Assembly (NCBI GenBank): GCA_016839765.1 | Contig: JAEOTP010000012.1 | Span: forward strand, 49,892-113,891 | Reading direction: 5' to 3' | Length of the DNA: 64,000 bases | From: Promethearchaeota archaeon | GTDB lineage: Archaea; Asgardarchaeota; Lokiarchaeia; Sigyniarchaeales; SOKP01 | Shown here: positions 8,912-52,167 of the stretch, one piece after another | Numbering within the stretch: the first letter of the stretch is position 1 | Layout of the letters: each line of letters begins with the position of its first letter | Notes under the pieces: generated by a model | Databases searched by the model: none | What the model was told of the DNA's origin: nothing | What the model saw: the letters and a program-made list of their open reading frames with translations, nothing else | Position numbers and translations under genes: made by a program

Positions 8912-9005
8912 AATAAGATTATTAAGTCTTTCTTATTAATTAGTTTAGAATATGATATCGCTTTATTTGCATTACTAAAAATTTTTAATTAAAAAAAAGA
9001 AAAAG

Positions 9006-14426: not shown

Positions 14427-14565
14427 TTTACTAAAAACAAAATATTATCTAAATTTTCAAACTATAAACATGAAATTTTTATAAAAAATGAATTTTACTT
14501 AATTAGCTTTAAATTGCATATATTTGTTCTTTAAATAAAATATTATAGAAGTGAAAAAATTTACG

Positions 14566-15063
14566 ATGTATGAATATCTAAACGAATTCGAATTTAAAGA
14601 GACTCTGAAAGAGTTATCATATATAGAGGGAGAACCGTTAATATTAAGTAATGAATTTAGTTTTTTCCATAATAAAAACAAATTCAGAAAAGATTTAAAT
14701 CGATTACAATATATCTTCAAAGATTATACCAAAGACTCTCTTGTAGCAGCAGGTATCCGAGATACCTATTTAAAAGAAGAATACACTGAAAATTTTCTAA
14801 TTGTTTTATTTACTACCAATGAAATTGTTAAGAATGCAAATGAATTCATAGAGAAATATATAAATAAGAAATTTAACTCTGGTTGTTTTTATTTAGAAAC
14901 AACATCTAACTATATGTTATTAATTGCAAAAGAGATGAAAGGCTTAATTTCTGGAATCGATATTATGGAAGAGATTTTTACCCAAACCTTTGAAGATTAT
15001 CTTAAACAAGCAAAGTTTGATGATTATATTAAGATTAGACAATTTTTTATAAATAATTGTTAA
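14566..15063 (+). CDS. Hypothetical protein with a GH20 domain-2-like (zincin-like) segment
   Basis: The ATG at 14566 is preferred over the GTG at 14551. The segment GCFYLETTSNYMLLIAKEMKGLISGIDIMEEIF resembles EGYNLEIEKNFILIYSIHERGLFYGLQTLIQLL of the GH20-like gene at 42698. Confidence 0.35.
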   Translation: MYEYLNEFEFKETLKELSYIEGEPLILSNEFSFFHNKNKFRKDLNRLQYIFKDYTKDSLVAAGIRDTYLKEEYTENFLIVLFTTNEIVKNANEFIEKYINKKFNSGCFYLETTSNYMLLIAKEMKGLISGIDIMEEIFTQTFEDYLKQAKFDDYIKIRQFFINNC

Positions 15064-22491: not shown

Positions 22492-22543
22492 ACATTCTTT
22501 ACTTTACGTTATTAAAAATAATTAATTACGAAAAATTTTGATT

Positions 22544-23890
22544 ATGCCTAATCGCTTAAATCCAGAAATGATTCATAAAAAATTTCTTAGAAATGAGATA
22601 AGTAAAAATGAATCCCTAAAATTACTGGAATCACTTATAAATGAAAGTGATAATGAAGAAATAAGAGCAAATGCAATTGAGGTTCTTGAACAATACTCAC
22701 CAATAGGTATCGGCATTTCCAAAGTTATTGAAAAGAGTTTAATTTCTGATGAATCTCCTTTAGTAAGAACCGCTGCTGCGAAATTGATTATTACAGCTAA
22801 TATAGAAGGAGCACAAAATGCTTTATGGTGGCGAATTCAGAATGAAAAATCAATTTTGTTCTTTAAAAAAAGTTTGGATTTCACAGAACGCTCCCAAAAT
22901 CCAGAAAATGAAAAATTCAAAGAATATCTTTTAAAAAGATTAAACCAGATTTATAAGTTAAATGAAGCTGATTCTGAATTCATCTTAGAGTTAGATTATC
23001 ATGATTATAAACATTTTGTAAGGGATTTTAAAGGTTTTTTATCAAAATTTGAAATTAGGGGAGAAGAAAGAAAAAAATTAATAAAAGAAAATACAGAAAT
23101 CGGTTATAAAGGCTTAGGAAGAATAACCTCAGCAAAAGAAGGATATATTATAGGTTTAATTTTAAACGATCTTGAAGAAGTACCAAAATCCCTTCAAAAT
23201 CTTTCAAAATTGGAATATCTAGAGATTAACCGCTGCAAAATTGGAGACTTACCAGATTCATATGGATATCTCTCTCAAATTAAAAATCTGACTATTAAAA
23301 ATAATGAAATTGAATCAATTCCACAATGGGTATTATATATCTCTTCGACCGGTAGCTATACTGAAAAGTATGTTAAAAATGGAGTTAATTTCGAGGAAGC
23401 TTCAATATTGGGGCTATTAGAAATTTTTACAGGTCAAGCTTTTGTTAAATTAGAATTAGAGGCTTCATTTTTTCCATCACTACTATTTTATTATAAAATA
23501 AACCAAAATGGTAATGTACTTGCCATACATCTATCATCTGAATTATCACGTATAGGTATATTTCCTAAAGAGATATGTAAATTAAGATTTTTAGAAGAAT
23601 TGTGTATGGTAAATCAAAGTATCAAGAGTATTCCAAATTGTATTGGAGAATTAAAAGCTTTAAAAACTTTAAATTTGAGCTTTAATAAAATCAATGAAAT
23701 TCCTAATTCTATAGGCAATTTAGAAAATTTAGAATATTTATATCTAAAAAATCATGAAGGGGAACAGATACTTAATCATATTACTGAAAATTTAATTAAT
23801 TTAAGGCAACTTAAGATTTTGGATTTAAGTGGAAATATTATAAGGAATTTACCAGAATCAATACAAAAATTAAATTCATTCAAAATTTAA
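22544..23890 (+). CDS. HEAT-repeat + leucine-rich-repeat (LRR) protein
   Basis: The N-terminus has HEAT/PBS-lyase-like repeats (NEEIRANAIEVLEQ, ESPLVRTAAAKLI). The C-terminus has LRRs (LSKLEYLEINRCKIGDLPDS, LKALKTLNLSFNKINEIPNSIGNLENLEYLYL, LRQLKILDLSGNIIRNLPES). The ATG at 22544 is preferred over the TTG at 22538. Confidence 0.7.
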   Translation: MPNRLNPEMIHKKFLRNEISKNESLKLLESLINESDNEEIRANAIEVLEQYSPIGIGISKVIEKSLISDESPLVRTAAAKLIITANIEGAQNALWWRIQNEKSILFFKKSLDFTERSQNPENEKFKEYLLKRLNQIYKLNEADSEFILELDYHDYKHFVRDFKGFLSKFEIRGEERKKLIKENTEIGYKGLGRITSAKEGYIIGLILNDLEEVPKSLQNLSKLEYLEINRCKIGDLPDSYGYLSQIKNLTIKNNEIESIPQWVLYISSTGSYTEKYVKNGVNFEEASILGLLEIFTGQAFVKLELEASFFPSLLFYYKINQNGNVLAIHLSSELSRIGIFPKEICKLRFLEELCMVNQSIKSIPNCIGELKALKTLNLSFNKINEIPNSIGNLENLEYLYLKNHEGEQILNHITENLINLRQLKILDLSGNIIRNLPESIQKLNSFKI

Positions 23891-26244: not shown

Positions 26245-27192
26245 ATGATTAATGAACTTGCTCAAAATTTTGGATATCATCCTTATATGATTAAAAGATA
26301 TCTTCAATTTCTGGGAGAAAACAATACAAAGAAACTGTTAGAAGCAAATGAAAAACCATTAAATCCCTCTATTAGAGTCAATACTCTAAAAATTTCAGTC
26401 GCTAGATTAAAAGAAAGACTCGAAAGTAAAGACTTTAAATTAAGATCTATTGAGCAGGTTCCCTATGGATTTGAAGTTATAGAATCCAAATTAAATTTAG
26501 GTTCTACCCATGAATATTTGCAAGGATACTATTATTTGCAAAACATTGCTTCTATGTTTCCTGCTTTAATACTTGATCCTAAACCAGGGGATCTGGTTAT
26601 AGATATGTGTGCTGCTCCAGGGAGTAAATCTACACATTTAGCCCAGATTATGGAAGATGAAGGAACCTTAATTCTAATTGAAAAAAATAGAAATAGAATT
26701 CCCTCCTTAGAATTAAACCTACGTAGGATGGGAATTTCAAATTCACTAATCTTGAATTTGGATGCCGTAAAATTGCAACAATTAGGAATTAAAGCTGATA
26801 AAGTATTATTAGATGCTCCTTGTACAGGTGAAGGTCTAATTAGAGAAGATCCAAGTAGAAAAAAAAGTAAGTCAATGAAAGATATAAATAAAATGGCATC
26901 AATCCAAAAAAGGTTGCTGAATGCTGGTTTAAAAACTCTAAATCCTGGTGGAAAACTATTATATAGTACATGCTCAATAGCACCTGAAGAAAATGAATTT
27001 GTTATTAATGAAGTGCTTCAAAATTTATCTAACTATTCTATTAATAAAATTGGTAATCAATATGGCACTAATGGGCTTACTAAGGTATTTGGCCATTCTT
27101 TAAGGAGTGATATTAAATTTTCTCAACGTCTTTATCCTCATTTACATAATACTATTGGCTTTTATTTATGCCTAATAAAAAAAGATCACTAA
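26245..27192 (+). CDS. NOL1/NOP2/Sun-family RNA cytosine-C5 methyltransferase
   Basis: It has the SAM pocket (DMCAAPGSKS) and the catalytic motifs DAPCTGEG and YSTCS. Confidence 0.8.
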   Translation: MINELAQNFGYHPYMIKRYLQFLGENNTKKLLEANEKPLNPSIRVNTLKISVARLKERLESKDFKLRSIEQVPYGFEVIESKLNLGSTHEYLQGYYYLQNIASMFPALILDPKPGDLVIDMCAAPGSKSTHLAQIMEDEGTLILIEKNRNRIPSLELNLRRMGISNSLILNLDAVKLQQLGIKADKVLLDAPCTGEGLIREDPSRKKSKSMKDINKMASIQKRLLNAGLKTLNPGGKLLYSTCSIAPEENEFVINEVLQNLSNYSINKIGNQYGTNGLTKVFGHSLRSDIKFSQRLYPHLHNTIGFYLCLIKKDH

Positions 27193-27315: not shown

Positions 27316-30300
27316 TTGAAATTAAAATCCAAATTTAAGCTTCATTTTATTGTAGTTGTTTTAATTTTAAGTGGACTTCTTTTATTAACAGTACCTTCTT
27401 CTAAAAAAGTAGATAAAAATGATGATAACTCAGAAAAAATTGATATTAAGGCGGAGAAACCTAAATCATCTACTTCTGGAATTGATTTTCTTTATGCAGA
27501 TAAAGATATTATAAAAGGTAATCAAACTGATGGAATTCTATGGGATGAAAATAATATCAGAGAAGTAGATGGAACTTATGATTCAACAGATTTTGCATTA
27601 GGCAATTCTTATAATTTTTTAGAAAAAGAGGTTTCCCCTCTAACAATTCCTATACATACAGGGACTTTTGGAAGCACTGATGGAGGTGATTGGAATTTCA
27701 CGGATACTTATAAAGAGAAAGATTATGAATATATCTACCTTAGAGCAGCGGGAGGAAGTGATTTTCCGGGAATAATTAAATTGAAATGGGGTGAATATAG
27801 CGATTTTAGTAATATTACAGCTAAACAAGTAGATTCCATTTCTCTTCGTTATGAAGTTACGCCCTTTTTATATCCTAGTAATGGTTTAGATCAATCTACA
27901 AACTTAAGTATTTGGGCTTTTGCTGATGATGGATCAAATCAATATGAAGTAATTGATTTATACCCAACGAATAAGCGGATTTATACAGATTGGTGGAATA
28001 TTACTCAAGGATCTGTATTTGATAGAGTAAAAGAGGGAGGTTATATTAAGTATCTACAACTGTCAATGAATTGCAGTGAAGAAATATGGAGTACGGTCAT
28101 TTTACATTTCGATTTTGTTCACATCTACTATAACTATCATAAATATGATGTTCAAGTTGATTATACTTTAAATTATGGAAATTACACTCTTAGTGATGTA
28201 CCAAAATTTGATTTAAATATACAAATGGATGAAACTGTAATAGGATTAGAGATTAAGTTATACAATTTCGCTAATTTAGAGTGGGATTCAATGGGGACAA
28301 TAGATGGTATTGAATTGATAAAAAAAGAAATCCTCATAAATGGAACACATTATTTTAATGGAACAAAAAGCATTAAACTTAAATTTGTAAAATTTAATTA
28401 TTTTGATACTCGCTCTTGGAGTGAATATCAAATAGAGCCAAACATGATTAAAGTAACACTTTATCCTCCAGAACCGCCCGATAATTTTCGAGCGAAAAAC
28501 GGTGCTGCACATATTTTACTAAATTGGGATTCAGCAATCACAAATGGACCGCCACTTATGAATTATAACATATATCGGGGAGAAGTAGCTGGCGGTCCGA
28601 AAACTCTCATAACTACAACAATAACTAATCAATATAACGATACTGGAGTTGTAATTGGTACTAGGTATTACTATGTTGTTAGTGCTACAACCATTGTGGG
28701 AATAAGTGAGAATTCTACAGAGGATTCAGGTAGAGCCTATGAACAACCCTTTATAGAATGGATAACTCCGGTAAACAATACACATATAATCCTTCCTAAA
28801 GGTGATCCTACAACTTTTACTTTTGAATATGATTGGGTTGAAATGGATGACGCAGAACTGGAACTCGATTATGGAACATTTCAAAGAACTTATAATGTGT
28901 GGAATAAAACTTCAATAGATATTGATGTGCTAAACGATTATGAAGATGGAAGTATAATCGCTACTCTAACTGGCAAAAATCAGAGCATTGTTTTAGACAC
29001 AGACATCATCCAATTAACGTTTGTTAGACTGTTAGATGAAATAATGGATACAGTTAATCAAAGCACAATACCTTTAGGACAACAACTCTATATGGTTCTC
29101 CATGATCCTAATGGTGATAATAGCTATTCTAATTTTTCTGAAACCTCAGTGCTTTCAATAGGGGTTGGTCTTGGGGCATTAACTGTAGTAGGAGAAAATT
29201 TTGGAATTGAATACTTTTATGGATATTGTGGTACTGATACAGGAGCTTCTTTATTATTAGAAAATAAAATGACTGCTGAAACGGGTTTTGATTTTCGATA
29301 TGAAATAATAGACGCTACAAATTTAACATCAAGTCAAGTATATGATGATCCAGATTATATTGGCCCAGGGTATGGAGATAGATATTGGGGTGAAACTTGG
29401 ATATTAAAATGGGTACTCAATGCTACCGAGAAAACTTATTCTAATGGAACTCATCGATGGGAGAACCCCGTTTTATATTATGGAATTATCAGAGGAGTTG
29501 AAACATTTGCAGGTGATTTTGATGCCCCACCAGAATGGAAATCTCAAAATGCCATTTATAATGGCTCAATACCTGTAAATTGGCTTGGAATGTTTATGGA
29601 AAGTGGAGGAGCACCCTATACTTCTACCCATCAAGTTAGTGAAACTCTGACAAGAAAAGACTCATTTGAATTATACTTTGGGTCAGATGCTACATTGAAA
29701 TTACCTTATATTGCAACAAATGCTACTTTTGAGATGAGCATTAAAAATTACGCAGAAACAGGGGTAGGGAATATCCATGAAGCAAGTTATAAAATCTATG
29801 ATGATGAACCTGATGATTTTATTGTTCACCAACTGGGTATCGATGAAAGATTTGGTACTTATATTTTTAACTCCTCAAGATTTTTCTGTGAAACCTCTCT
29901 CCCGCTTGAGCATAATACTTTCGATTATCGCCCTCCCGATATAGATTATCCTGTAGTAGATCTAGATTCAAATGATGATGGGTATGGACCCACAAACGAG
30001 GATTTTCCTGTCATAACTGTCGATATATTTGAAGAAAATGGAATGCAAGACGTAGTTATTCGGTATTCTATTAATAATGGATCTTTTTGGGATGTTATCT
30101 ATCTTTCAGAACTGTCTGGGCAAGTTGGAACATGGCAAGGAACGATCTCAAATCAAACTCTTAATACGACTGTACTATGGTACATTCAAGCATGGGATAA
30201 TCAAGGTAATTATGCAATTCGATATAATTATTCAGTAACACCATTTAAATATACTGTAATTCAAAAACCTGCTGAACCTACTGAGACAGAAACTCCAACA

Positions 30301-30402
30301 GGAATTCCCTACCCGCTCATAACAATAGTACCAATCATGATTGTGTCTGTCATAACAATTACTATAATTTACTATAAAAAGACCAAAAAAAATAAGGAAT
30401 AA
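27316..30402 (+). CDS. Large secreted/anchored surface glycoprotein candidate with FN3 domain and C-terminal TM anchor
   Basis: It has a TTG start followed by a signal-like helix (FIVVVLILSGLLLLTV). It has an FN3-like unit (PPEPPDNFRAKNGAAHILLNWD...YNIYRG...YYYVVSA). I counted about 26 N-x-S/T sequons by eye. The C-terminus has a PTETETPT linker, a TM helix and a KKTKKNKE tail. Confidence 0.6.
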   Translation: MKLKSKFKLHFIVVVLILSGLLLLTVPSSKKVDKNDDNSEKIDIKAEKPKSSTSGIDFLYADKDIIKGNQTDGILWDENNIREVDGTYDSTDFALGNSYNFLEKEVSPLTIPIHTGTFGSTDGGDWNFTDTYKEKDYEYIYLRAAGGSDFPGIIKLKWGEYSDFSNITAKQVDSISLRYEVTPFLYPSNGLDQSTNLSIWAFADDGSNQYEVIDLYPTNKRIYTDWWNITQGSVFDRVKEGGYIKYLQLSMNCSEEIWSTVILHFDFVHIYYNYHKYDVQVDYTLNYGNYTLSDVPKFDLNIQMDETVIGLEIKLYNFANLEWDSMGTIDGIELIKKEILINGTHYFNGTKSIKLKFVKFNYFDTRSWSEYQIEPNMIKVTLYPPEPPDNFRAKNGAAHILLNWDSAITNGPPLMNYNIYRGEVAGGPKTLITTTITNQYNDTGVVIGTRYYYVVSATTIVGISENSTEDSGRAYEQPFIEWITPVNNTHIILPKGDPTTFTFEYDWVEMDDAELELDYGTFQRTYNVWNKTSIDIDVLNDYEDGSIIATLTGKNQSIVLDTDIIQLTFVRLLDEIMDTVNQSTIPLGQQLYMVLHDPNGDNSYSNFSETSVLSIGVGLGALTVVGENFGIEYFYGYCGTDTGASLLLENKMTAETGFDFRYEIIDATNLTSSQVYDDPDYIGPGYGDRYWGETWILKWVLNATEKTYSNGTHRWENPVLYYGIIRGVETFAGDFDAPPEWKSQNAIYNGSIPVNWLGMFMESGGAPYTSTHQVSETLTRKDSFELYFGSDATLKLPYIATNATFEMSIKNYAETGVGNIHEASYKIYDDEPDDFIVHQLGIDERFGTYIFNSSRFFCETSLPLEHNTFDYRPPDIDYPVVDLDSNDDGYGPTNEDFPVITVDIFEENGMQDVVIRYSINNGSFWDVIYLSELSGQVGTWQGTISNQTLNTTVLWYIQAWDNQGNYAIRYNYSVTPFKYTVIQKPAEPTETETPTGIPYPLITIVPIMIVSVITITIIYYKKTKKNKE

Positions 30403-30417
30403 ATTACCCTTTTTTTA

Positions 30418-30999
30418 TTATTGATTTTTTCGTAAATAGTATCCTTTATCAATCAAATTTAAAGCGATTAAATCATCTGATTCAAGATTATAGAAATTAT
30501 TTCCTTCAACTTTTGTAATACCAATTGCTATTATCTCTTTTAGTTCATTTAAAACTACTACTAGGTCATTTATTTTTAATTCCATCGAAATGTTCGATAC
30601 CATCTTTTTTAAGATATTATTTCCATAAAGAATTGATTTTTCACCTTGTATATTAACAATTATTTGATTTTTTTCAAGGATGTATTTATTTCTATATAAA
30701 AATTCAGCTCCTTCTAAACTTAAAAAGAAAAACCCTTTCTTTATAAAGCCAAAATAAAGCCCCATTGAATAACTATAAGAAGTTAATTGAAGTAATTGTT
30801 TTAAATCCTTGTTCCTGGGTTTAATTAAATAAATTGGAAGTTGATTACCCTTAATAACTGGAGAATTTAAAAGTATATACAAATCATATAATTTTTCATC
30901 CAATATTGATATAAATTTAATTGAGATTTGAGAAAGAGAATTTGCAATAATATTTTTTTCATAATTATTAATAGGTCTAAAATTTTTTGAATCATTCAT
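30418..30999 (-). CDS. NIP7-like pre-PUA + PUA domain protein (ribosome biogenesis factor homolog)
   Basis: FRPINNYEKNII..., GLYFGFIKKGFFFLSLEGAEFL, GEKSILYGNNILK and DLVVVLNELKEIIAIGI...LIDKGYYLR parallel the eukaryotic NIP7 layout. An internal ATG at 30999 is preferred over the ORF start at 31047. Confidence 0.6.
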   Translation of the reverse strand: MNDSKNFRPINNYEKNIIANSLSQISIKFISILDEKLYDLYILLNSPVIKGNQLPIYLIKPRNKDLKQLLQLTSYSYSMGLYFGFIKKGFFFLSLEGAEFLYRNKYILEKNQIIVNIQGEKSILYGNNILKKMVSNISMELKINDLVVVLNELKEIIAIGITKVEGNNFYNLESDDLIALNLIDKGYYLRKNQ

Positions 31000-31077
31000 A
31001 ATTGATTTAAATGAAAAGAAATAAGTAGATTTATTAATATTAATCAAATAAGATATTAAAAAATAGTGTTAAGAAAG

Positions 31078-31794
31078 ATGGGTATTCGAAAAATAGAAGA
31101 TGAAATTGATCTAAAAGAAGCTATGAAGAAAAAGGCAGCAGAATTAAGGTTGAAAGACATCCAAGCTAAAGCAGCTGCAGAAAAGTTTACAAAAGAAAGA
31201 TTAAGAGAACTGGCTAAAAAACATGGTGTAATATTAGCTCTAACTCCAGAATTGAAGGAGGAAGTAAAATATTTGCAAAAACTATACAAGATTCCCACTT
31301 CAAAAATTATAATAGAACAAATTACGGAACATGATGTAATTAAGAAATCGTCTAAAATTGACCATGAAAAGTTGGGTATGTTAGCTTATCAAAGAGTTCT
31401 TATGCAAAAAGAAGAAATTGGAGCGGGAGTATTACCAATCTCAGAAGTTTTTGATATTATTAACACTGGAATATTAAAGGGTAATGTTGAGATAAAAGAT
31501 CTCAAAAAAGCTTTAAGAATATTAAAGAAGTATAATGTAATTGACGATTTACAGGAGTTAGATTCCGGTACTATGATGATTAGATTCTTTCCAGTTCAAT
31601 ATACAAGTGATCAAATAAAAGTTATTGAAGTAGCTAAAGAAAATGGTTTTGTATCTCTTGAAGACGTATGTGTGAATCTAAATTGGCCTCAGGACAGAGC
31701 TTTAAAGGCCTTAAAATCACTTGAGGAAAGTGGAATAGCAAAATTTAGGGAATCCCTATTAAAAGGTAAACAATGGTATTTTCCATCGATGTAA
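31078..31794 (+). CDS. ESCRT-II Vps22/Vps36-like protein (EAP30 domain, tandem winged helices)
   Basis: The C-terminal 150 aa align by eye with SNF8/EAP30: GVLPISEVFDII..., IKDLKKALRILKK, MMIRFFPVQ, VIEVAKENGFVSLEDVCVNLNWPQDRALKALKSLEESGIA, QWYFPS. The N-terminus is a K/E/A-rich helix. Confidence 0.8.
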   Translation: MGIRKIEDEIDLKEAMKKKAAELRLKDIQAKAAAEKFTKERLRELAKKHGVILALTPELKEEVKYLQKLYKIPTSKIIIEQITEHDVIKKSSKIDHEKLGMLAYQRVLMQKEEIGAGVLPISEVFDIINTGILKGNVEIKDLKKALRILKKYNVIDDLQELDSGTMMIRFFPVQYTSDQIKVIEVAKENGFVSLEDVCVNLNWPQDRALKALKSLEESGIAKFRESLLKGKQWYFPSM

Positions 31795-31798
31795 AAAT

Positions 31799-32698
31799 TT
31801 ATTCTGCTTTAATTTTAAAAGAAATTTGCCCATCCTCAGATTTTATTATTCTTCCACGTTCATTTTTTTCAAGCATCTTGAAAATTTCAATTAAATCTTC
31901 TTTTGGAAGATTACTAAAATCCTTATTAGACTCTCTTATTTCAAATATTAAAATTGGCTCTAGGGGTGAAATCTCCATTACCCATTCATAAATTTCCTCT
32001 GCCCAGTTATCAAGCGTTTTCCAGTATATTCTCAACTTTTCTTTACTTTTGGATAACCAAAGTGCTTGATTTTTCTCAACTAGATCCTCAGCAATAATTT
32101 CTAAAGCAGTATGTCGATCTTCAAACTTAGAAAAAGGTTTTTCTGATTGTAATTTTCTTAAATATAAGATATGAAGTATAGCATATCTTGCATAATCAAA
32201 AATAACTTTTGACCATTCACTTTTCCATGATTCAAAATCTGTATGATTGGTCTTTTTATTGGGAATTGAAAACATGAATACATATCTTTTTTCTTCAAGC
32301 CATGGATGATCATTTAGTAATAATTCATAGGTGGATACTTCTTTAGCAACAACACCCTTTTCGCCAACTATCTCTTGTTCTATTGCTTCAAGTTCTTTTT
32401 CTATTTGTTCAGAATGTTGTTTGTATGCTTTTGAATCTACATCTCCCAGTTTACTTGTTAAAAAATCCTCAATTCTATCCAAGCGGGTTTCAATATCTTC
32501 AGTTATGGCTTTTTCAGAAGTCTCGTTTTGTGCTCCCTCTTCTTTAATTATTTCATTTTCCTCAACTTCTTGAAGTTTTTTTTGTCTTTTTAGTTCTTTT
32601 AATCTTGCTAATTCTTTCCTTAAATCATCTAATTCTTTTCCTGCTTTCTCTTCAGGTTCTTTAGGGATTTCTTTTGATTTTTCTCCTTGCCGTTCCAT
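31799..32698 (-). CDS. ESCRT-II Vps25-like protein with ~130-aa N-terminal E/K-rich coiled-coil extension
   Basis: The C-terminal half resembles Vps25: WSKVIFDYARY..., ALWLSKSKEKLRIYWKTLDNWAEEIYEWV, FSNLPKEDLIEIFKMLEKNERGRII..DGQISFKI. Confidence 0.75.
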   Translation of the reverse strand: MERQGEKSKEIPKEPEEKAGKELDDLRKELARLKELKRQKKLQEVEENEIIKEEGAQNETSEKAITEDIETRLDRIEDFLTSKLGDVDSKAYKQHSEQIEKELEAIEQEIVGEKGVVAKEVSTYELLLNDHPWLEEKRYVFMFSIPNKKTNHTDFESWKSEWSKVIFDYARYAILHILYLRKLQSEKPFSKFEDRHTALEIIAEDLVEKNQALWLSKSKEKLRIYWKTLDNWAEEIYEWVMEISPLEPILIFEIRESNKDFSNLPKEDLIEIFKMLEKNERGRIIKSEDGQISFKIKAE

Positions 32699-32721
32699 TT
32701 TTTATGCAACCAACTTTTTTA

Positions 32722-33912
32722 TTAAAATTCTCCGAATTCTTCAGCCCAATCTTGATATCTTTTTAATACAGACCCAGTGGTCATTGGTTTTATTTTTTTA
32801 ATCGTTTTTAGAAAATCTTTTAAATTTATATCCCTTACAATGACTTCTTTATCTGGATCTTCCAACAATCCTCCCATATCTAATTCTCGAACAGGAATCA
32901 TTATTACCTCTCGACATACATTAGAAATGTCTCGACCTGAATAACCATCAGAACGAACAGCCAATTCAATAAAATCTTCATCCTTTAATGCAGAATTAAC
33001 ACCTGCGGTATGAATCTTAAAAATTCCTGCTCTAGCTGGTTGATCTGGAAGGGGAACATATACCTTTTTTTCGAATCTACTTAACATTGCGATATCAATA
33101 TCCCAAGGTCGATTTGTAGCTCCGAGTACAAGTAATGGTTTGTCATGAGTTGATTTTACTCCTTGGATTTCTTGTAATAACTGGGTTTTTACTCTTCTCT
33201 CTCCCCCTCCTTCATGACCACTTCCTCTCGTTGTGGTTACAGAATCAATTTCATCCATGAAAATTAAGCTTGGTGCTTTCAGTCGAGCTACTTTGAACAA
33301 AGATGATATTAACTTCTCACTCTCACCTAACCACTTACTTAATAAATCTGCTGATGAAACACTGAAAAAAGTGGCTTTACATTCAGTCGCTGCTGCCTTA
33401 GCTAGCAAAGTCTTTCCACATCCAGGAGGCCCAAATAGCAATATCCCTGACCATGGTTTCCTAGCACCAGTAAATAATTGTGGTTTCATAATTGGTAACA
33501 CTATAGCTTCTCTTACAGCTTGCTTACAATCTTTTAAGCCTGCAATATCTTTCCATTTAACATTTGGTGATTCTGTTAAAATCGTGCCTGAAATGGAATC
33601 CATAAGTTCTTGTTCTTCTGAAGACACAGCACCTTCCTCCCCTCCTTCTCCTTTTGGCTCACTTGGACTTACTGCTGGAGATGATCTTCGTGCTCGTGGA
33701 CCACTTAAATGAGCTTTAAGAGCTTGGGCACGAGTAACATACTGTTCAATTTGATCTTGGCATTTTCTTATCATCATGGGATTTTTATTATATTTGACAA
33801 ATTGAATAAGTATTTCAGCTGCCCGTTGATATTTGTTTATAGCTTGTCTATATCTACCTGCTTCATCTAATTTTACAGCGGCATTTGCTTCTTCAACAGC
33901 ATATTGATACAA
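32722..33912 (-). CDS. vps4: Vps4 (MIT domain + AAA+ ATPase), ESCRT-III disassembly ATPase
   Basis: It has an MIT-like N-terminus (AVEEANAAVKLDEAGRYRQAINKYQRAAEIL) and Walker A (GILLFGPPGCGKT). It also has SKWLGESEKL, Walker B (LIFMDEIDS), VLGATNRPWDID, SRFEKKVYVPLP and a C-terminal WAEEFG helix. These closely match eukaryotic VPS4 blocks. The apparent start is TTG. Confidence 0.92.
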   Translation of the reverse strand: MYQYAVEEANAAVKLDEAGRYRQAINKYQRAAEILIQFVKYNKNPMMIRKCQDQIEQYVTRAQALKAHLSGPRARRSSPAVSPSEPKGEGGEEGAVSSEEQELMDSISGTILTESPNVKWKDIAGLKDCKQAVREAIVLPIMKPQLFTGARKPWSGILLFGPPGCGKTLLAKAAATECKATFFSVSSADLLSKWLGESEKLISSLFKVARLKAPSLIFMDEIDSVTTTRGSGHEGGGERRVKTQLLQEIQGVKSTHDKPLLVLGATNRPWDIDIAMLSRFEKKVYVPLPDQPARAGIFKIHTAGVNSALKDEDFIELAVRSDGYSGRDISNVCREVIMIPVRELDMGGLLEDPDKEVIVRDINLKDFLKTIKKIKPMTTGSVLKRYQDWAEEFGEF

Positions 33913-34204
33913 TTTGGAGTCTACTGATGAGATAATAATAACCTCTTATTTTTAGCTTATTTTATTGTATAATATTTCAATTGTTATTTAAATTAATCTA
34001 ATACTAATCTTTCCTTATAATTAATATTAAATAAAAGGTATTTCAAATTTTCTTTTTAATCATATAGATTCTAAATAATTCTTATTTTATTTGTAGTTTC
34101 TTCTCAAACATTTGACGTAATTATTGGTCTACAAAAAATTATATAATCTCGAATTTTTTTATATATTATAAAACAACTAAAAATCAAAATGAGATTGAAT
34201 CAAA

Positions 34205-34834
34205 ATGGGTTTTCTTAAAGATCTATCAGGCTGGTTGTCTGGAGGCCGTAAAAAGGATACAGTTCGTTCTGCAACAATTAGATTGAAAGTTTTCAATAAA
34301 CGATTAATGAGACAGACTAAAAAAATGGAAATAACTGCCAAACAAGCAAGAGATAAAGCTGTAAATCTTCGAAAGGCAGGTGATATGGAAGGATCTACAT
34401 TTCACGCTCGTAATTATCTCCAAGTTAAAAAACAAGCAAGGGCAATAGATTTATTCAGGACAAACCTTGAAGGCATGGTATTTAAATTAGAACAAGCAAC
34501 AGCAGTTAAAGATGTTGCTGATATTATGCATGGAATTGCACAAAGCTTGGGAGCATTAAAGAATCAATTGTCTATTCCACAAATCACAGAACTAATGACC
34601 CAAATTGGAGTAGATATAGAGGATTTTAGTGTAACTGAGGAAATCACCACTGATGGTATAAATGAGGTTATGCTAGACACAGCAGTTACTGATAATGATG
34701 TTAAGGAAGTATTAGGCGAAATAGATGCCGAAATAGGTGCTGAAATTGGTGGAGCACTTCCATCTGTGGCAGAACCTGATGGAAAAGTTAAAGAATTAGA
34801 AGATGAGTTACGAAAATTGAAATCAAAAGATTAA
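34205..34834 (+). CDS. ESCRT-III subunit, Snf7 family, Vps2/24/46 (CHMP1-3)-like
   Basis: It has a basic N-terminal helical hairpin and an acidic C-terminal half. LKNQLSIPQITELMTQI parallels CHMP2 NRQLKLPQIQKIMMEF. The C-terminus has a MIM-like helix (KELEDELRKLKSK). Confidence 0.85.
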   Translation: MGFLKDLSGWLSGGRKKDTVRSATIRLKVFNKRLMRQTKKMEITAKQARDKAVNLRKAGDMEGSTFHARNYLQVKKQARAIDLFRTNLEGMVFKLEQATAVKDVADIMHGIAQSLGALKNQLSIPQITELMTQIGVDIEDFSVTEEITTDGINEVMLDTAVTDNDVKEVLGEIDAEIGAEIGGALPSVAEPDGKVKELEDELRKLKSKD

Positions 34835-34933
34835 TACAAACTTTTTCCTATACATTTTGAAGTAAAATTATTTAAGATCAAATACTATTTTTAACTTATT
34901 CTTTAATTCAATTATTAATATTTCGTGTTATTT

Positions 34934-35953
34934 ATGACCAATAATTATGATTTAATTTCAATTGGCAGCTGTACACTTGATTGTATAATCTCTGTAAAAG
35001 ATATTCTCAGATTTGAATTATTCGAAAAGGAAATAGTTAAAAAGTATACAGCAATTGAGTATAGCCGAAAATTGAATGTGGAAAATATGCGATTTGTTCC
35101 GGGAGGTTCAGGTGCTAATATTGCTGCCGATTGTGCAATGTTAGGATTAAAGTCAACTTATATAGGTGTTTTAGGAAATGATTTCTCTGCTCAAATTTGC
35201 TTAGAAGATTTAAAAAAGAGAGGGGTTGATACTTCAAATATTAAGCAAACACATGAGGATAAAACTGCTTTTTCATTAATTTTGAAGACTGAATGGGGAA
35301 AGGATAGGAGTATTTTAGCATATAAAGGAGCAAATAATTTACTTACTCCAGATGATGTAAGAGAAGAACTATTTGAAGGGATTAAAGCTTTTGGTTGGAG
35401 TTCCTTAACTTCTGAAAATGGATGTCAAGCAATTGATAAAGCAATTTCACTGACAAAAGAGAATGGAGGAAGAGTTTTTGCTGCTCCCAGTATGTCTATC
35501 ATTAAAAACAATCCAATATGGGCAAAAAAATTAATATCAAAATCAGAAATCGTATCGATGAACGCTGAAGAAGCACAAGAATTTACAAATGAATCTGATA
35601 GCTATTATAGTCTTAGAAAAATTTTTGAAATGGGTCCAAAGCTAGTATCAATTACTGATGGAGCTAAAGGCTCTTTGTTGACTGATGGTAAGAAAGTTAT
35701 TAAAAGTGGAGTTTATAATGTTGATGTAAAAGATACAACTGGAGCAGGGGATGCTTTTCTAAGCGGTTTGTTAGTTTCTATTTTAACTGGAATTTCTTTA
35801 GATAAAATGATTAAATTAGCAACCGCAATGTCTTCATTAGAGGCTATGGAAGTAGGCGTTCGAACAGGAATTCCTAATAATATTCAAGAATTAGAGAAAT
35901 TCATCGCATCTCAAGAATTACAACAAATTGTTTCAGAACTCACTCAATTTTAA
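34934..35953 (+). CDS. PfkB-family carbohydrate/nucleoside kinase
   Basis: It has GGSGANIA near the N-terminus and the C-terminal signature DTTGAGDAFLSG. The ATG at 34934 is preferred over the GTG at 34925. Confidence 0.75.
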   Translation: MTNNYDLISIGSCTLDCIISVKDILRFELFEKEIVKKYTAIEYSRKLNVENMRFVPGGSGANIAADCAMLGLKSTYIGVLGNDFSAQICLEDLKKRGVDTSNIKQTHEDKTAFSLILKTEWGKDRSILAYKGANNLLTPDDVREELFEGIKAFGWSSLTSENGCQAIDKAISLTKENGGRVFAAPSMSIIKNNPIWAKKLISKSEIVSMNAEEAQEFTNESDSYYSLRKIFEMGPKLVSITDGAKGSLLTDGKKVIKSGVYNVDVKDTTGAGDAFLSGLLVSILTGISLDKMIKLATAMSSLEAMEVGVRTGIPNNIQELEKFIASQELQQIVSELTQF

Positions 35954-35969
35954 AATCAATAATTAAATT
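35930..35969. repeat. Left copy of a ~40-bp imperfect direct repeat (spans the PfkB stop codon)
   Basis: gtttcagaactcactcaattttaaaatcaataattaaatt compares with 36745..36784 gtttcaaaactcactcaattttaaaatcgaaaattaaatt (3 mismatches). Confidence 0.85.
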
Positions 35970-36060
35970 CAATTTTTAATGTAATACAAAAAAAACACCT
36001 AAAAATGAGATTAAGAATTACTAACTCTAATTTAAATCCTGATTTAAAAAAAAAAAAAAT

Positions 36061-36576
36061 TTAATTAAAAGTTTGGACAAATAATGAACAAGGTCTAACT
36101 GAATCAGCAGTACTACTTCCCTTATATACTAATGTAACAGTATGACTTCCTGAAGTCATGGTTGTGTTATAATGCTGTAATGATACAGACATTCGTAAAC
36201 CATGAGCAGAAGCAATATTATATCTTTGTACATAAATTCGAGGTTGAGGCCACATAAGGCCATCTATTTCAAAATGAACTTCAACATAACTAGTAGGATT
36301 CGAGCTATCATCAAAATTTATTTCAGCTATAAATAAAAAATAAACATCTTGTCCCGAACTAACATCAAAATCTATGGATATACTGGAAATAGTTCCCCAA
36401 GCTTCGCTTGCTTGCATGTAAAACACAGTCGTAGAAAAATCATACCATTGATTTTCTGCTGGTGATGTAGGAGGACTTGCAATATAATTGTCATATAAAA
36501 TGAAACCTGTTGCTCCAAGACTAACGATTAGAGCAATCACCGCAATAATACTACTACCTCTTCCCATCTTTTCCAT
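36061..36576 (-). CDS. N-terminally membrane-anchored beta-rich hypothetical protein (cargo of repeat-flanked segment)
   Basis: The N-terminus (MEKMGRGSSIIAVIALIVSLGATGFIL) is followed by a Ser/Thr-rich, strand-like sequence. I recognise no family. Confidence 0.4.
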   Translation of the reverse strand: MEKMGRGSSIIAVIALIVSLGATGFILYDNYIASPPTSPAENQWYDFSTTVFYMQASEAWGTISSISIDFDVSSGQDVYFLFIAEINFDDSSNPTSYVEVHFEIDGLMWPQPRIYVQRYNIASAHGLRMSVSLQHYNTTMTSGSHTVTLVYKGSSTADSVRPCSLFVQTFN

Positions 36577-36848: not shown

Positions 36849-37373
36849 ATGGATGTTTACAAGTTTAAGATCGTGATTATTGGCGATGGTGGTGTTGGAA
36901 AAACAACATTAACACATCGGTATCTCACGGGTGTCTTTAAAGAAACTTACAAATTGACTCTTGGAATGGATTTCTATTTAAAAAAGCTAGAAATGAATGG
37001 AAAACAGATAAAACTTCACATTTGGGATTTTGCTGGAGAAGAAAAGTTTAGATTTTTATTACCTAGTGCTGTTCTTGCCGCACAGGGGACAATTTTTATG
37101 TATGATATTACAAGGTATAATACATTTAAGAATTTAACTGACTGGTTATCTGTTTTTGATGAAGCAAATAAAACTCATAATCAGGAAGTATCTACGATTT
37201 TAGTAGCAAGTAAATTAGATCTTGAGGAAAATCGAGCAGTTTCTGAGAATGAGGGCAAAATTTTTGCAGAAGAATATAAATTCTCAGAATATATAGAAAG
37301 TTCTTCAAAAACAGGGGAAAATGTTGACTATATATTTGAAAAAATCACGAGAATAATACTTAAAAAGATATAA
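36849..37373 (+). CDS. Rab/Ras-like small GTPase with non-canonical G3 and G4 motifs
   Basis: G1 is GDGGVGKT, switch I is YKLTLGMDF, G3 is WDFAGEE, G4 is ASKLD and G5 is SSK. It is 174 aa with no C-terminal Cys. Confidence 0.85.
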   Translation: MDVYKFKIVIIGDGGVGKTTLTHRYLTGVFKETYKLTLGMDFYLKKLEMNGKQIKLHIWDFAGEEKFRFLLPSAVLAAQGTIFMYDITRYNTFKNLTDWLSVFDEANKTHNQEVSTILVASKLDLEENRAVSENEGKIFAEEYKFSEYIESSSKTGENVDYIFEKITRIILKKI

Positions 37374-38454: not shown

Positions 38455-38525
38455 GCGTCGTTAGTATAGTGGTAGAATTCACGCCTGCCACGCGTGGGAC
38501 CCGGGTTCGAATCCCGGACGACGCA
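38455..38525 (+). tRNA. tRNA-Gly (anticodon GCC)
   Basis: It folds by hand. The acceptor is GCGTCGT/ACGACGC, the anticodon arm is CACGC-CTGCCAC-GCGTG, the T arm is CCGGG-TTCGAAT-CCCGG, and the discriminator is A. No CCA is encoded. It is a GC-rich island in AT-rich DNA. Confidence 0.9.
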
Positions 38526-38699: not shown

Positions 38700-39542
38700 T
38701 TATAAAGTACTAAGAAAATTTGAAATATCTGAGGATCTAGGGACTTCAACTTCAAAATAGTATTCAACAATTTCATACAAATAATCTAAATAAGGAATGG
38801 ATATTTTAACATCATGTTTTTTTTTCAATTCACTTATCATCTTTTTTGAATAGATTTTTTCATTCTTCTTTAGGTTATTAATAACATCTATTATGGTTTT
38901 AGATAATTCGAAAGCTTTTTGTATTTCATTTTTTAGGATAATTAAACTAGTTAACGGATCATATTCACTTAGAAATTTCTGAATTATTGTCTTTTCTACA
39001 TTTAATTTGGTGGATTGAATTTTACTATTAAAATCATTAATTACTTCCCGACCTTTAAATGCAAAATGCTCATCAAATGCCTTACTATTATAATCCTCTT
39101 CAGTAATCATACTAAGATCAATATTAAATGTGTTTTGTGTTAAATAATCAATAAAGTTTGAAATTTGGCTAAACATGTATGTTTGATCAGAAATTATAAC
39201 TATTTTCTTATTATAGATCATTGCCCTCAATACATAGCCTAGTAATGAAGCTGTTAAATTTAGTTTAATTAAATCGATTTCAAATAAATCCGATAAATCT
39301 TTCTCAACTTCAGTTATTTCTTCAGAAATAGCATTTGGGAGTTCGACTTGAAAATCGGCTTTAAATGTATCTCTTACAACAAAATTTTTATCAACGTAAG
39401 CAACAAAAGAATGTTCACAAACAATACCTTCTTCGATGTTAACTGTAAATAGACCTCGCGAAGCTTTTTTAACTTCATCATCAGAAACTTCGATAAAATT
39501 ATTTTTTGAGCAAGTGGGGCAACGAACTTGAAGTTTAGCCAT
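38700..39542 (-). CDS. Hypothetical protein with N-terminal zinc-ribbon-like motif
   Basis: CPTCSKNNF...x25...CEHSF is followed by a mixed alpha/beta region (LLGYVLRAMIYNKKIVIISDQ) and a helical C-terminal half. Confidence 0.45.
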   Translation of the reverse strand: MAKLQVRCPTCSKNNFIEVSDDEVKKASRGLFTVNIEEGIVCEHSFVAYVDKNFVVRDTFKADFQVELPNAISEEITEVEKDLSDLFEIDLIKLNLTASLLGYVLRAMIYNKKIVIISDQTYMFSQISNFIDYLTQNTFNIDLSMITEEDYNSKAFDEHFAFKGREVINDFNSKIQSTKLNVEKTIIQKFLSEYDPLTSLIILKNEIQKAFELSKTIIDVINNLKKNEKIYSKKMISELKKKHDVKISIPYLDYLYEIVEYYFEVEVPRSSDISNFLSTL

Positions 39543-40195: not shown

Positions 40196-40286
40196 TGGGC
40201 CCGGCGCGATTTGAACGCGCGACCTTCCGCACGTCAAGCGGACGTCACTGCAGGCTTTCAAGCTTTCCGAGCTAGACCACGGGCCC
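40196..40286 (-). tRNA. tRNA-Val (anticodon GAC) carrying a ~17-nt insertion (putative non-canonical intron) in the D-loop
   Basis: The minus strand reads GGGCCCG TG GTCT [26-nt loop AGCTCGGAAAGCTTGAAAGCCTGCAG] TGAC G TCCGC TTGACGT GCGGA AGGTC GCGCG TTCAAAT CGCGC CGGGCCC A. All arms pair, but the D-loop is about 17 nt too long. Confidence 0.8.
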
Positions 40287-51969: not shown

Positions 51970-52167
51970 CTATAAATCTCTCTCCTGAACCGTTTTTCGG
52001 TTATTTGCCTTTGCACGCGCGACAGCCTTTTCTAAAAGCTCTATAAGAATGGAATTTAGTTTATTTCCATCAAGGACCTCGCTGGCTGTGTTACAATTCT
52101 TAGATTTTATGTATTCCTTTACTTTGCTCTTAACGAAAAGGGTTTCTACTGCTGGTTTTTTAGCCAT
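51970..52167 (-). CDS. Small histone-fold-like protein (DUF1931-like)
   Basis: LFVKSKVKEYIKSKN...LNSILIELLEKAVARAKANNRKTVQERDL matches my recollection of the DUF1931 pattern (vKSKVKE ... A..RAk.NgRKTV...D). Confidence 0.55.
   Translation of the reverse strand: MAKKPAVETLFVKSKVKEYIKSKNCNTASEVLDGNKLNSILIELLEKAVARAKANNRKTVQERDL

Follow-up and report, generated by a model that had tools for sequence, protein, structure and literature searches.

In Lokiarchaeum sp. GC14_75, locus tags Lokiarch_37450, 37460, 37470 and 37480 encode Vps22, Vps25, Vps4 and an ESCRT-III protein of the Vps2/24/46 type, respectively (Spang et al., 2015, tabulated in PMC5840170). The Snf7-type ESCRT-III (Lokiarch_16760), a Vps23-like protein and Vps28 (Lokiarch_10170) of the same genome carry non-adjacent locus tags (PMC5840170), and the ubiquitin and ESCRT regions of Lokiarchaeota have been described as separate (Hatano et al., 2022). 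Clusters are also known from Thorarchaeota AB25 (08990-09030), Heimdallarchaeota AB125 (14010-14070, plus ubiquitin) and Odinarchaeum LCB_4 (a full ubiquitin-ESCRT cluster). Further, Vps22 orthologues from Heimdall and Loki form homodimers and bind Vps25, as SEC-MALS and yeast two-hybrid work has shown, and extra N-terminal subdomains are a known feature of Asgard Vps25 proteins.

Here, we describe an ESCRT locus in a 64-kb stretch of DNA (64,000 nucleotides, hereafter the window) from a Promethearchaeota archaeon. All four adjacent open reading frames listed in a preliminary description were found in their places, and together they are a true eukaryote-like ESCRT membrane-remodelling set, comprising Vps22, Vps25, Vps4 and an ESCRT-III protein of the CHMP1-3 type. 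Profile, solved-structure and fold tests agree, and the earlier reading of the family identities is thus supported. With little doubt, the module represents the core ESCRT locus in a Lokiarchaeial genome and is orthologous to Lokiarch_37450-37480. The gene set and its order are already known from the first Lokiarchaeum genome, published in 2015, and the module was correctly introduced as an Asgard hallmark. As had been noted, the neighbouring genes encode a UPF0113/PUA protein (NIP7-like) and a PfkB kinase (Pfam). The layout PfkB<-ESCRT-III / Vps4->Vps25-><-Vps22 / NIP7 is retained in about 80 species-level genomes, with the same order and orientation at 80 Promethearchaeota loci (80/80 consistent as far as each contig permits) whose Vps4 identities range from 70% to 97%, the latter in the closest public genomes.

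The vps22-like gene (31078..31794, plus strand; 238 aa) encodes an ESCRT-II subunit of the EAP30/SNF8 family, in which N-terminal helices precede tandem winged helices. The Pfam EAP30 profile is matched over its full length (positions 1-214 of 219; 42 bits with a cut-off at 26.8, E = 1.2e-10). The protein also matches the solved structures of yeast Vps22 (1u5t_A, 2.9e-9) and human SNF8 (1e-6), and Lokiarch_37450 at 9.4e-110 (phmmer). The start is ATG 31078, as first proposed, and not 31066 of the longer reading frame, because the Lokiarchaeum orthologue opens with MGIRKIED.

The reading of 31799..32698 (minus strand; 299 aa) as the ESCRT-II gene vps25 likewise holds. Residues 153-256 match Pfam ESCRT-II with 44.4 bits (cut-off 27, E = 2.4e-11), and matches in the PDB include 9uyv (3.6e-48), Odin Vps25 (7pb9, 9.7e-24) and human Vps25 (3cuq_C, 1e-7). 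An AF2 model built from a diverse alignment has a core pLDDT above 90. Its best Foldseek matches are Odin, human and yeast Vps25 (E from 3e-12 to 4e-5; 7pb9 at 3e-12 with a TM of 0.82), and Lokiarchaeum Vps25 (37460) is matched by the protein at 8.9e-90 (phmmer). The tandem winged-helix core spans about aa 129-299 (nt 31802-32314). Ahead of it, nt 32315-32698 encode an N-terminal extension of about 128 aa that is helical and charged. The segment before the first winged helix (PWLEEKRYVFMFSIPNKK) is conserved but is no PPXY motif. In eukaryotic Vps25, the N-terminus is short and binds Vps22/Vps36 through motifs of the PPXY type.

The third gene, vps4 (32722..33933, minus strand; about 403 aa), encodes a MIT domain, an AAA+ ATPase and Vps4_C. 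All four Pfam domains exceed their gathering cut-offs (MIT 46.1, AAA 135.4, AAA_lid_3 38.4 and Vps4_C 27.5 bits). The Vps4_C match spans profile positions 21-61 only. Human VPS4B and yeast Vps4 are matched full-length, the former in one unbroken alignment over query residues 3-345, and Lokiarchaeum Vps4 (37470) is matched at 5.7e-193 (phmmer). The preliminary description was right about the family but began the gene at TTG 33912. A comparison of start codons over 80 orthologues indicates that the start is most likely the near-cognate ATC at 33931-33933, 21 nt upstream; all nine genomes of one clade share this codon, and an SD-like GAGGT lies before it at 33941-33945. Walker A (GPPGCGKT), Walker B (IFMDEID) and the pore loop (SKWLGESEK) are conserved in the 80 orthologues. 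The eukaryotic arginine-finger pair (AIRRRFEK) is absent and a single arginine stands in its place (AMLSRFEK), which is conserved in Loki orthologues including Lokiarch_37470. Loki Vps4, with the same arginine substitution, was among the proteins in published ATPase assays and partially rescued the class E vacuole phenotype of a yeast vps4-null strain (Lu, 2020). The beta-domain insertion is also missing, the protein being shorter here than yeast Vps4 by about 29 aa. In eukaryotic Vps4, the beta-domain is the binding site of Vta1/LIP5.

The ESCRT-III gene (34205..34834, plus strand; 209 aa) belongs to the Vps2/24/46 (CHMP1-3) class. Pfam Snf7 is matched above its gathering cut-off (65.2 bits, 7.6e-18), which together with the results above places every profile of the proposed check (EAP30, ESCRT-II, Snf7, MIT and Vps4_C) over its curated threshold. 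The closest solved relatives are CHMP2A (2.3e-10) and CHMP1B (2.4e-7), in line with the CHMP2-like Snf7 fold suggested earlier, and neither CHMP4 nor CHMP6 of eukaryotes is among the PDB matches. Pairwise scores, as distinct from a tree, group the protein with Lokiarch_37480 (8.2e-92, phmmer), Thor_09000 and Heim_14010, the last two at 62-64 bits compared with 13-25 bits to B-type proteins. Judged by its sequence, it falls into the A-type of Souza 2025; Hatano's sequence file labels the Lokiarchaeum orthologue 'ESCRT3B'. The N-terminal half is basic (pI 10.6) and the C-terminal half acidic (pI 4.05).

A MIM1-like motif (VKELEDELRKLK; aa 195-206, 34787..34822, plus strand) ends three residues short of the ESCRT-III C-terminus. 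Across 66 orthologues, E197, L198, E201, L202, L205 and K206 vary hardly or not at all. Set against the MIM1 consensus (D/E)xxLxxRLxxL(K/R), the C-terminus ...KELEDELRKLKSKD fits at L4, L8, L11 and K12, but an invariant Glu takes the place of Arg at position 7, and the strict eukaryotic MIM1 expression finds no match in the protein. Asgard Vps2/24/46 proteins have been reported to carry C-terminal MIM1-like motifs and to bind the Vps4 MIT domain by ITC (Lu, 2020). A conserved amphipathic helix in the N-terminal extension of Vps25 (AGKELDDLRKELARLKELK; aa 19-37, 32588..32644, minus strand) corresponds position by position to this motif of the neighbouring ESCRT-III, with L23, L26, E29, L30, R32, L33 and L36 invariant or nearly so in 78 orthologues. 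The pattern L..EL..L[KR] was confined to Vps25 and ESCRT-III among the proteins scanned, and hhalign gave P = 0.002 for the Vps25 helix against the ESCRT-III C-terminus (controls 0.025-0.78). By this resemblance, the Vps25 helix may be a putative Vps4-docking motif.

The spacing of the genes is as previously given for the 23 nt from the vps4 stop to the vps25 start and for the 4 nt (31795-31798) between the converging stops of vps25 and vps22. The 292 nt given for the divergent ESCRT-III and vps4 genes stands for the TTG start, and the spacer measures 271 nt with the more likely ATC. From this spacing, a vps4-vps25 bicistron, a divergent ESCRT-III gene and a separate vps22 converging on vps25 are the probable transcription units, and the AT-rich divergent region (33934..34204, unstranded) presumably holds two archaeal promoters. 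The stretch TTTATATATTATAAAA, which starts some 50 nt before the ATG of the ESCRT-III gene, would be a candidate element of one. The spacer is 191-299 nt long at 72 loci, with little positional conservation past close relatives in an ungapped, right-anchored comparison. A sigma-70 scan showed no enrichment in it, this model not being applicable to archaea.

The module had been thought to deserve a second look for its composition, and the absences behind this view are borne out: no other ESCRT or ubiquitin gene was found by Pfam among all 59 window ORFs of at least 80 aa or by phmmer with generic probes in the six-frame translation of the window, and Lokiarchaeum-specific ubiquitin, Vps23, Vps28 and Snf7-type ESCRT-III probes found none in six-frame segments of 25 aa or longer (phmmer). 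One could read this as a truly reduced system, in which ESCRT-I, ubiquitin and the Snf7-type ESCRT-III have been lost and a minimal machine of ESCRT-II, A-type ESCRT-III and Vps4 is left, the more so as an extra component lies within 10 kb of the module at 0 of 80 related loci. However, GC14_75 has the same isolated four-gene module with its other parts under non-adjacent tags, and discrete ubiquitin and ESCRT regions are the arrangement that Hatano et al. (2022) documented. The B-type ESCRT-III of Lokiarchaeum, used as a query, retrieved 350 proteins, which, where a source names them, are given as Promethearchaeota or other Asgard MAG proteins, and in one related genome this gene occupies its own locus, two genes away from one for a Zn-ribbon/steadiness-box protein. 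We therefore regard a reduced system as very unlikely. Because the arrangement is the documented Lokiarchaeial one, the absence of ESCRT-I, ubiquitin and Snf7-type ESCRT-III at the locus is not peculiar, and because the same set and order occur in Lokiarchaeum and recur in 80 related genomes, the "incomplete" make-up of the module is ordinary for Lokiarchaeia. Within the scope of one 64-kb window, and by analogy with other Lokiarchaeia, ubiquitin, ESCRT-I-like proteins and a B-type ESCRT-III would be encoded at other loci.

CdvB/CdvC matches without any to EAP30 or Vps25 had been set by the preliminary description as the outcome that would refute it, and this is not what the profiles show. A generic archaeal Cdv division system (CdvB/CdvC) beside unrelated, transcription-factor-like winged-helix genes would explain why the best named NCBIfam matches are CdvC (5.6e-82) and CdvB (4e-7), but both fall far under their equivalog cut-offs (275.6 against 650 and 30 against 370). 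The winged-helix proteins pass the Pfam thresholds for EAP30 and Vps25 and match solved structures of both, the ESCRT-III is nearest to CHMP2A/CHMP1B and ends in a MIM1-like motif, not a MIM2, and no family named CdvA is among the Pfam matches of any window ORF. The profile and fold results thus reject the Cdv reading, which we hold to be highly improbable. The strongly eukaryote-like domain architectures might also suggest eukaryotic contamination of the assembly, or ESCRT genes recently acquired from a eukaryote by horizontal transfer. Against this, GC content stays at 0.26-0.35 across the whole window and does not shift at the module, and the flanking genes are archaeal housekeeping ones (those for ribosomal S3Ae and S15, Dus and PGK, along with a tRNA that probably bears an intron). 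The genes are intronless, tightly spaced and syntenic in 80 archaeal MAGs, and identity to eukaryotic proteins is low (about 20% for the Vps25 model to human and yeast Vps25). Together, these observations effectively refute a eukaryotic source, to which we attach a negligible probability.

Homology and published experiments on orthologues suggest how such a module might work. A Vps22 homodimer, as reported for orthologues and proposed in the literature as a substitute for the Vps22/Vps36 stalk, would replace this eukaryotic stalk and carry Vps25, which would bridge ESCRT-II to ESCRT-III. Contacts between Vps25 and ESCRT-III were seen for orthologues by yeast two-hybrid analysis; the class of ESCRT-III contacted by Lokiarchaeial Vps25 is ambiguous because Hatano's A and B labels are swapped between Loki and Thor/Heimdall. 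A Snf7-type (B-type) ESCRT-III from elsewhere in the genome would be first on the membrane and recruit the A-type subunit, a recruitment published for orthologues, and the A-type subunit would drive tubulation and constriction. The MIT domain of Vps4 would dock on the MIM1-like helix at the ESCRT-III C-terminus, in line with the binding of ESCRT-III subunits to Asgard MIT domains in ITC (Lu, 2020), and Vps4 would thread the polymer through its pore, leading to disassembly.

Crenarchaeal CdvABC systems resemble the locus in having an ESCRT-III homologue and a MIT-AAA ATPase in adjacent genes, but ESCRT-II homologues (Vps22, Vps25) have not been reported in Crenarchaeota, and their CdvBs lack MIM1 and use MIM2 for the MIT domain (Lu, 2020). 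Eukaryotic ESCRT-II, ESCRT-III and Vps4 share domain families and folds with the window proteins, and eukaryotic ESCRT-III also shares the basic/acidic organization and the pairing of a C-terminal MIM1-like helix with a MIT domain. In contrast to eukaryotic ESCRT-II (Vps22/Vps36/2xVps25), there is no Vps36 gene at the window locus, although a separate 'VPS36' of MK-D1 is named in one preprint. Eukaryotic ESCRT-III (CHMP1-7) has eight subfamilies compared with two paralogues in the present system, eukaryotic Vps25 is without the N-terminal extension of about 128 aa, and the window Vps4 lacks the beta-domain of about 29 aa and, in its second region of homology, reads LSR where eukaryotes have RRR. 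In the MIM1-like motif, Glu replaces the eukaryotic Arg at position 7.

Among Asgard archaea, Heimdall, Hel and Odin differ in having a single cluster for both ESCRT-III genes, ESCRT-I and ubiquitin, and the Loki motif is, by eye, missing from the N-terminal extension of Vps25 in Thor and Heimdall. By locus-tag order, the Thor, Heimdall and Odin clusters nonetheless have vps4 between vps25 and the A-type ESCRT-III gene, with vps22 past vps25, and Thor, like the window locus, keeps its B-type ESCRT-III apart (distant tag 07240). Lokiarchaeum GC14_75, whose protein sequences were taken from PMC9192718, is another species than the window genome; its annotated Vps4 begins with Met at the place of the window's ATC, and its ubiquitin gene (Lokiarch_37670) is only 19 locus tags off, whereas there is none within about 30 kb here. 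In GC14_75 the B-type ESCRT-III, Vps28 and Vps23-like genes stand apart by locus tag. The same four genes come in the same order in the two, and both genomes encode an ESCRT-III of 209 aa, a Vps25 with a long N-terminal extension that includes the ELxxELxKLK helix, and a Vps4 with MLSRF and an MSSVDSK N-terminus.

The ESCRT module in the window is real. All four open reading frames (ORFs) that a preliminary description had recognised by eye were found in place and scored above the Pfam curated thresholds, and the family interpretation is supported, as every assignment to EAP30, ESCRT-II, Snf7, MIT and Vps4_C held in the Pfam scan. The vps22-like gene (31066/31078..31794, + strand) gives a full-length match to EAP30 (42 bits, cut-off 26.8), the vps25-like gene (31799..32698, - strand) matches ESCRT-II/Vps25 over residues 153-256 only (44.4 bits, cut-off 27), vps4 as mechanically called (32722..33912, - strand) contains MIT, AAA, AAA_lid_3 and Vps4_C domains, and the ESCRT-III gene (34205..34834, + strand) matches Snf7 at 65.2 bits. 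The spacings within the module (23 nt, 4 nt and 292 nt) had been calculated correctly, and Pfam also confirmed the neighbours, a UPF0113/PUA (NIP7-like) gene and a PfkB kinase. Generic CdvB and CdvC genes lacking EAP30 or Vps25 hits, the outcome that would have spoken against the module, are not what was found, since the NCBIfam equivalogs fall far under their cut-offs (CdvC 275.6 against 650; CdvB 30 against 370).

Comparison with solved structures gave the same families. The Vps25-like protein matches PDB 9uyv, an 'ESCRT-II complex subunit' (3.6e-48), and Odinarchaeal Vps25 (7pb9, 9.7e-24), followed by human and yeast Vps25; the Vps22-like protein matches yeast Vps22 and human SNF8; and Vps4 aligns with human VPS4B and yeast Vps4 in one stretch that includes the MIT domain. 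The ESCRT-III protein matches CHMP2A (2.3e-10) and then CHMP1B, with no match to eukaryotic CHMP4 or CHMP6 in this search. An AF2 model of the Vps25-like protein built from a diverse alignment has a winged-helix core of pLDDT >90, and Foldseek places it closest to Vps25 of Odin, human and yeast (TM 0.82 to 7pb9). An earlier model from a shallow alignment (42 sequences, >=69% identity) was discarded, its mean pLDDT being 54.7 and its winged-helix core also poor.

Scanning one genome per species yielded 80 related loci, nearly all labelled Promethearchaeota or Promethearchaeia, whose Vps4 proteins are 70-97% identical to that of the window. A tblastn search with the window proteins gave a single layout in these loci, as far as each contig extends: read in the reverse direction to the window, as the loci were fetched, the PfkB and ESCRT-III genes point leftwards, vps4 and vps25 rightwards, vps22 leftwards and the NIP7-like gene rightwards, often with an RsmB/Nop2-type methyltransferase gene next. 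The NIP7-like gene (30418-31047, - strand), the methyltransferase gene (26245-27192, + strand) and the PfkB gene (34925-35953, + strand) keep to the module in most of the 80 genomes, with variable genes in between. Eukaryotic Nip7 and Nop2 are partners in ribosome biogenesis. A functional tie of the PfkB and NIP7-like genes to ESCRT was considered; the evidence is synteny within one class, and we therefore take the arrangement as inherited gene order. In locus L069, two Vps25 matches proved to be one gene split over two reading frames and not paralogues.

Other genes surround this conserved core. A 1028-aa ORF (27316-30402, + strand) with an N-terminal hydrophobic segment, a C-terminal membrane anchor and only a weak fn3 match lies between the NIP7-like and methyltransferase genes in the window and its closest relatives; other loci lack it or have only a 37-41% identical counterpart, which makes it a variable insert within the conserved synteny. 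Typical eukaryote-like genes of Asgard archaea are represented by a Ras/Rab-like small GTPase about 2 kb from the module (36849-37373, + strand; Pfam Ras 2.1e-47) and, farther away, a HEAT and leucine-rich-repeat protein (22538-23890, + strand). The interval between the PfkB and ESCRT-III genes often contains a weaker Rab-like match in the related loci, at 34-45% identity in the more distant genomes. A scan of 30300-36100 for sigma-70 promoters and intrinsic terminators, models that are not applicable to archaea, returned 29 sites against 28.4 expected. Elsewhere in the window, five ORFs (38700-39542, 54505-55311, 58672-59589, 50207-50941 and 14551-15063) gave nothing above threshold in Pfam searched to E 10. 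Among the mid-sized ones without a Pfam family (38700-39542, - strand; 54505-55311 and 58672-59589, + strand), one has an N-terminal Zn-ribbon (CPTC) and two resemble longin/roadblock-type regulators by eye, the sole hint being a weak AP-5 sigma match (E 0.03). A 65-aa ORF (51970-52167, - strand; MAKKPAVETLFVKSKVKEY...) is the longest frame in an ORF-poor 970-bp gap between a NikR-like gene and a GH2 glycosidase gene, and resembles small histone-fold/DUF1931-type proteins by eye. A tRNA-Gly(GCC) at 38455-38525 was called by both Rfam and ARAGORN; a 91-nt Rfam tRNA match at 40196-40286 (- strand, 51.8 bits) has no ARAGORN call and is thus probably an intron-containing archaeal tRNA.

The start of vps4 needs revision. 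The mechanical TTG start at 33912 is not credible, because orthologues carry further conserved N-terminal residues upstream: the related loci encode M-S-S-V-D-S-K-L or near variants ahead of the residues that align with the window Vps4 N-terminus. At the Met position, 55 loci have ATG, 12 TTG, two GTG and one ATA, and the codon is fixed as ATC (33931-33933, - strand, in the window) in a nine-genome clade made up of the window and loci L001-L008. Within this clade, the six codons after the ATC differ near-exclusively by synonymous changes (GTA/GTT, GAC/GAT, TCC/TCT/TCA/TCG), with one D-to-E replacement. The TTG of the window is TTA or CTA in L003-L008, leaving those genomes no canonical alternative start; the ATC has an in-frame TAA five codons before it and a GAGGT 7 nt before it (within 33910-33948, - strand). 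Together these features point to initiation at the ATC, and vps4 appears best placed at 32722..33933 with a near-cognate start. If confirmed, the conserved ATC would represent rare near-cognate initiation in an Asgard archaeon and would correct the automated annotation of the MIT domain N-terminus.

The arginine fingers of Vps4 are the last two arginines of a triplet in the second region of homology. In alignment with human VPS4B (1xwi), this region (residues ~275-285) reads AMLSRFEK against the eukaryotic AIRRRFEK, a substitution that keeps one arginine of the triplet and is conserved in the 80 Loki orthologues and in Lokiarch_37470; one finger is thus lost in Lokiarchaeial Vps4. Also conserved across the 80 orthologues is the absence, at residues ~345-355, of about 29 residues that correspond to the yeast beta-domain. 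No paper in the literature searched discusses the arginine change in Asgard Vps4. If confirmed, a single-arginine region would pose the question of how ATP hydrolysis between subunits proceeds in Lokiarchaeial Vps4. Loki Vps4 was among the proteins assayed for ATPase activity, and in a yeast vps4-null strain it partially relieved the class E vacuole phenotype (Lu et al., 2020).

The window ESCRT-III shows the class hallmarks of a basic N-terminal half (pI 10.6) and an acidic C-terminal half (pI 4.05). By pairwise scores it groups with Lokiarch_37480, Thor_09000 and Heim_14010, and is therefore A-type as defined by Souza et al. (2025), in whose later nomenclature A-type means CHMP1-3-like (PMC11804906). 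The labels in the sequence file of Hatano et al. are reversed between lineages: Lokiarch_37480 is named 'ESCRT3B' and Lokiarch_16760 'ESCRT3A', whereas Thor 09000 and Heimdall 14010, the counterparts of Lokiarch_37480, are named 'ESCRT3A' (PMC9192718 Supplementary Data 1), so statements on 'Vps25-ESCRT-IIIB' need care for Lokiarchaeia. Homology and published experiments on orthologues suggest how the module would work. A Vps22 homodimer would replace the eukaryotic Vps22/Vps36 pair and carry Vps25, which would contact ESCRT-III, as the orthologues do in yeast two-hybrid assays (Hatano et al., 2022). B-type ESCRT-III on flat membrane would recruit the A-type protein, which would then drive tubulation, after the Heimdallarchaeal two-subunit system in which the B-type (CHMP4-7-like) binds flat membrane and recruits a tubulating A-type (CHMP1-3-like) (Souza et al., 2025). 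Asgard Vps4 MIT domains bind ESCRT-III subunits in ITC (Lu et al., 2020).

That Asgard Vps25 proteins carry additional N-terminal subdomains has been described before (Makarova et al., 2024), and the crystal structure of Vps25 from the cultured Lokiarchaeon MK-D1, of which PDB 9uyv may be the entry, was reported with an 'unstructured N-terminal extension'. Vps25 residues 1-299 align in nearly all of the 80 loci, making the extension a lineage feature; at least 34 residues precede the core in 74/74 full-length relatives (50%-identity cluster representatives). Its conservation is uneven, which we did not find described in the literature: among 78 orthologues, residues 1-30 are conserved to the same degree as the segments of the winged-helix core (mean top-residue frequency 0.78 vs 0.73-0.75), residues 40-65 are variable, there is no variation at L26, E29, L30 and L33, and L23, R32 and L36 are almost invariant. 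The sequence of the invariant helix (aa 19-37; 32588-32644, - strand) reads ...ELDDLRKELARLKELK. Its motif [ED]25-L26-x-x-E29-L30-x-R32-L33-[KR]34 matches, position by position, the invariant E197-L198-x-x-E201-L202-x-[RK]-L205-K206 that ends three residues before the ESCRT-III C-terminus (...KELEDELRKLK, aa 195-206; 34787-34822, + strand).

The pattern L..EL..L[KR], defined post hoc with both proteins already inspected, is confined to Vps25 and ESCRT-III among the 59 window ORFs, and across the loci it is found in 78/79 Vps25, 71/73 ESCRT-III and 1/980 other long ORF segments. Among eight neighbour-family profiles, the best local match of the ESCRT-III C-terminus is to Vps25 residues 19-34 (hhalign P 0.002; controls 0.025-0.78). 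The likeness suggests a MIM-like helix that would let ESCRT-II dock the Vps4 MIT domain directly, a role that we consider unlikely; alternatively, the helix could open or activate ESCRT-III by imitating its C-terminal helix. Eukaryotic ESCRT-II is not known to have such a link. A role as a coiled coil, or one like that of the steadiness box, is no less likely than Vps4 docking, and leucines spaced in this way are common in coiled coils. AF2 predicts helices in the extension at residues 16-51, 61-82 and 89-111; their pLDDT is 40-72 even with the diverse alignment, so that no fold, steadiness-box or other, is claimed. The strict motif is confined to the closest Loki clusters (7/74 Vps25 representatives); Lokiarch_37460, the Vps25 of Lokiarchaeum sp. 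GC14_75, shares it (ELKKELEKLK), whereas, judged by eye, a looser form is present in Odin Vps25 and none in the Thor and Heimdall proteins. A joint reading, in which the extension would be more than a disordered tail, the helix would be a second MIM1-like copy and the fixed near-cognate ATC would lower or regulate the supply of Vps4, is likewise improbable. Should it be confirmed, a MIT-interacting-like helix on ESCRT-II would point to closer coupling of ESCRT-II and Vps4 in the archaeal system from which the eukaryotic pathway descends. This helix, the ATC start and the single-arginine Vps4 are small side leads that can be tested and, if confirmed, would be of interest to specialists.

The composition of the module had been singled out as odd, the window containing no ESCRT-I, ubiquitin or second ESCRT-III genes. 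The genes are indeed missing, although the absence is a documented Lokiarchaeial arrangement and not a peculiarity. Pfam detected no Vps28, UEV, UQ_con, ThiF, ubiquitin or second Snf7 in any of the 59 window ORFs of >=80 aa. GC14_75 probes for ubiquitin, Vps23, Vps28 and Snf7-type ESCRT-III (sequences from the PMC9192718 supplement) found only the known ESCRT-III gene in the window, and in none of the 80 loci a further component at up to 10 kb from the module. Approximate eukaryotic probes (ubiquitin, yeast Snf7 and yeast Vps28) likewise found only that gene, and iterative jackhmmer revealed no second Snf7, EAP30 or Vps25 paralogue in the 80 loci. B-type proteins exist elsewhere: a search with Lokiarch_16760 returned 350 proteins which, where named, are Snf7 family proteins of Promethearchaeota or other Asgard MAGs. 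In the related MAG GCA_048886685.1, the B-type gene lies on a 325-kb contig in housekeeping surroundings. A protein of 673 aa, homologous to the Zn-ribbon 'steadiness box' protein of Thorarchaea (E 1.4e-31), is encoded two genes from the B-type gene, and the two form a second small ESCRT locus (L081, 10001-13812).

The main use of the window locus is as a clean positive control for by-eye recognition of ESCRT genes. Both the module and the 'incomplete' make-up of the locus had been described for Lokiarchaeia, and the finding is therefore of low novelty. In GC14_75, Vps22, Vps25, Vps4 and the Vps2/24/46-type ESCRT-III are Lokiarch_37450, 37460, 37470 and 37480, and the Snf7-type ESCRT-III, Vps23-like protein and Vps28 are Lokiarch_16760, Lokiarch_16740 and Lokiarch_10170 (PMC5840170); the pairing in L081 resembles the close locus tags of Lokiarch_16760 and 16740. 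Lokiarchaeota Ub and ESCRT genes occupy two discrete regions, with Vps25 the most tightly linked to ESCRT-III and Vps4 (Hatano et al., 2022), and vps25-like genes as a rule have the same direction as vps4 and ESCRT-III (Makarova et al., 2024). Beside these systems, the window locus adds one more orthologous case of a much-studied Asgard hallmark, not a system of a new kind.
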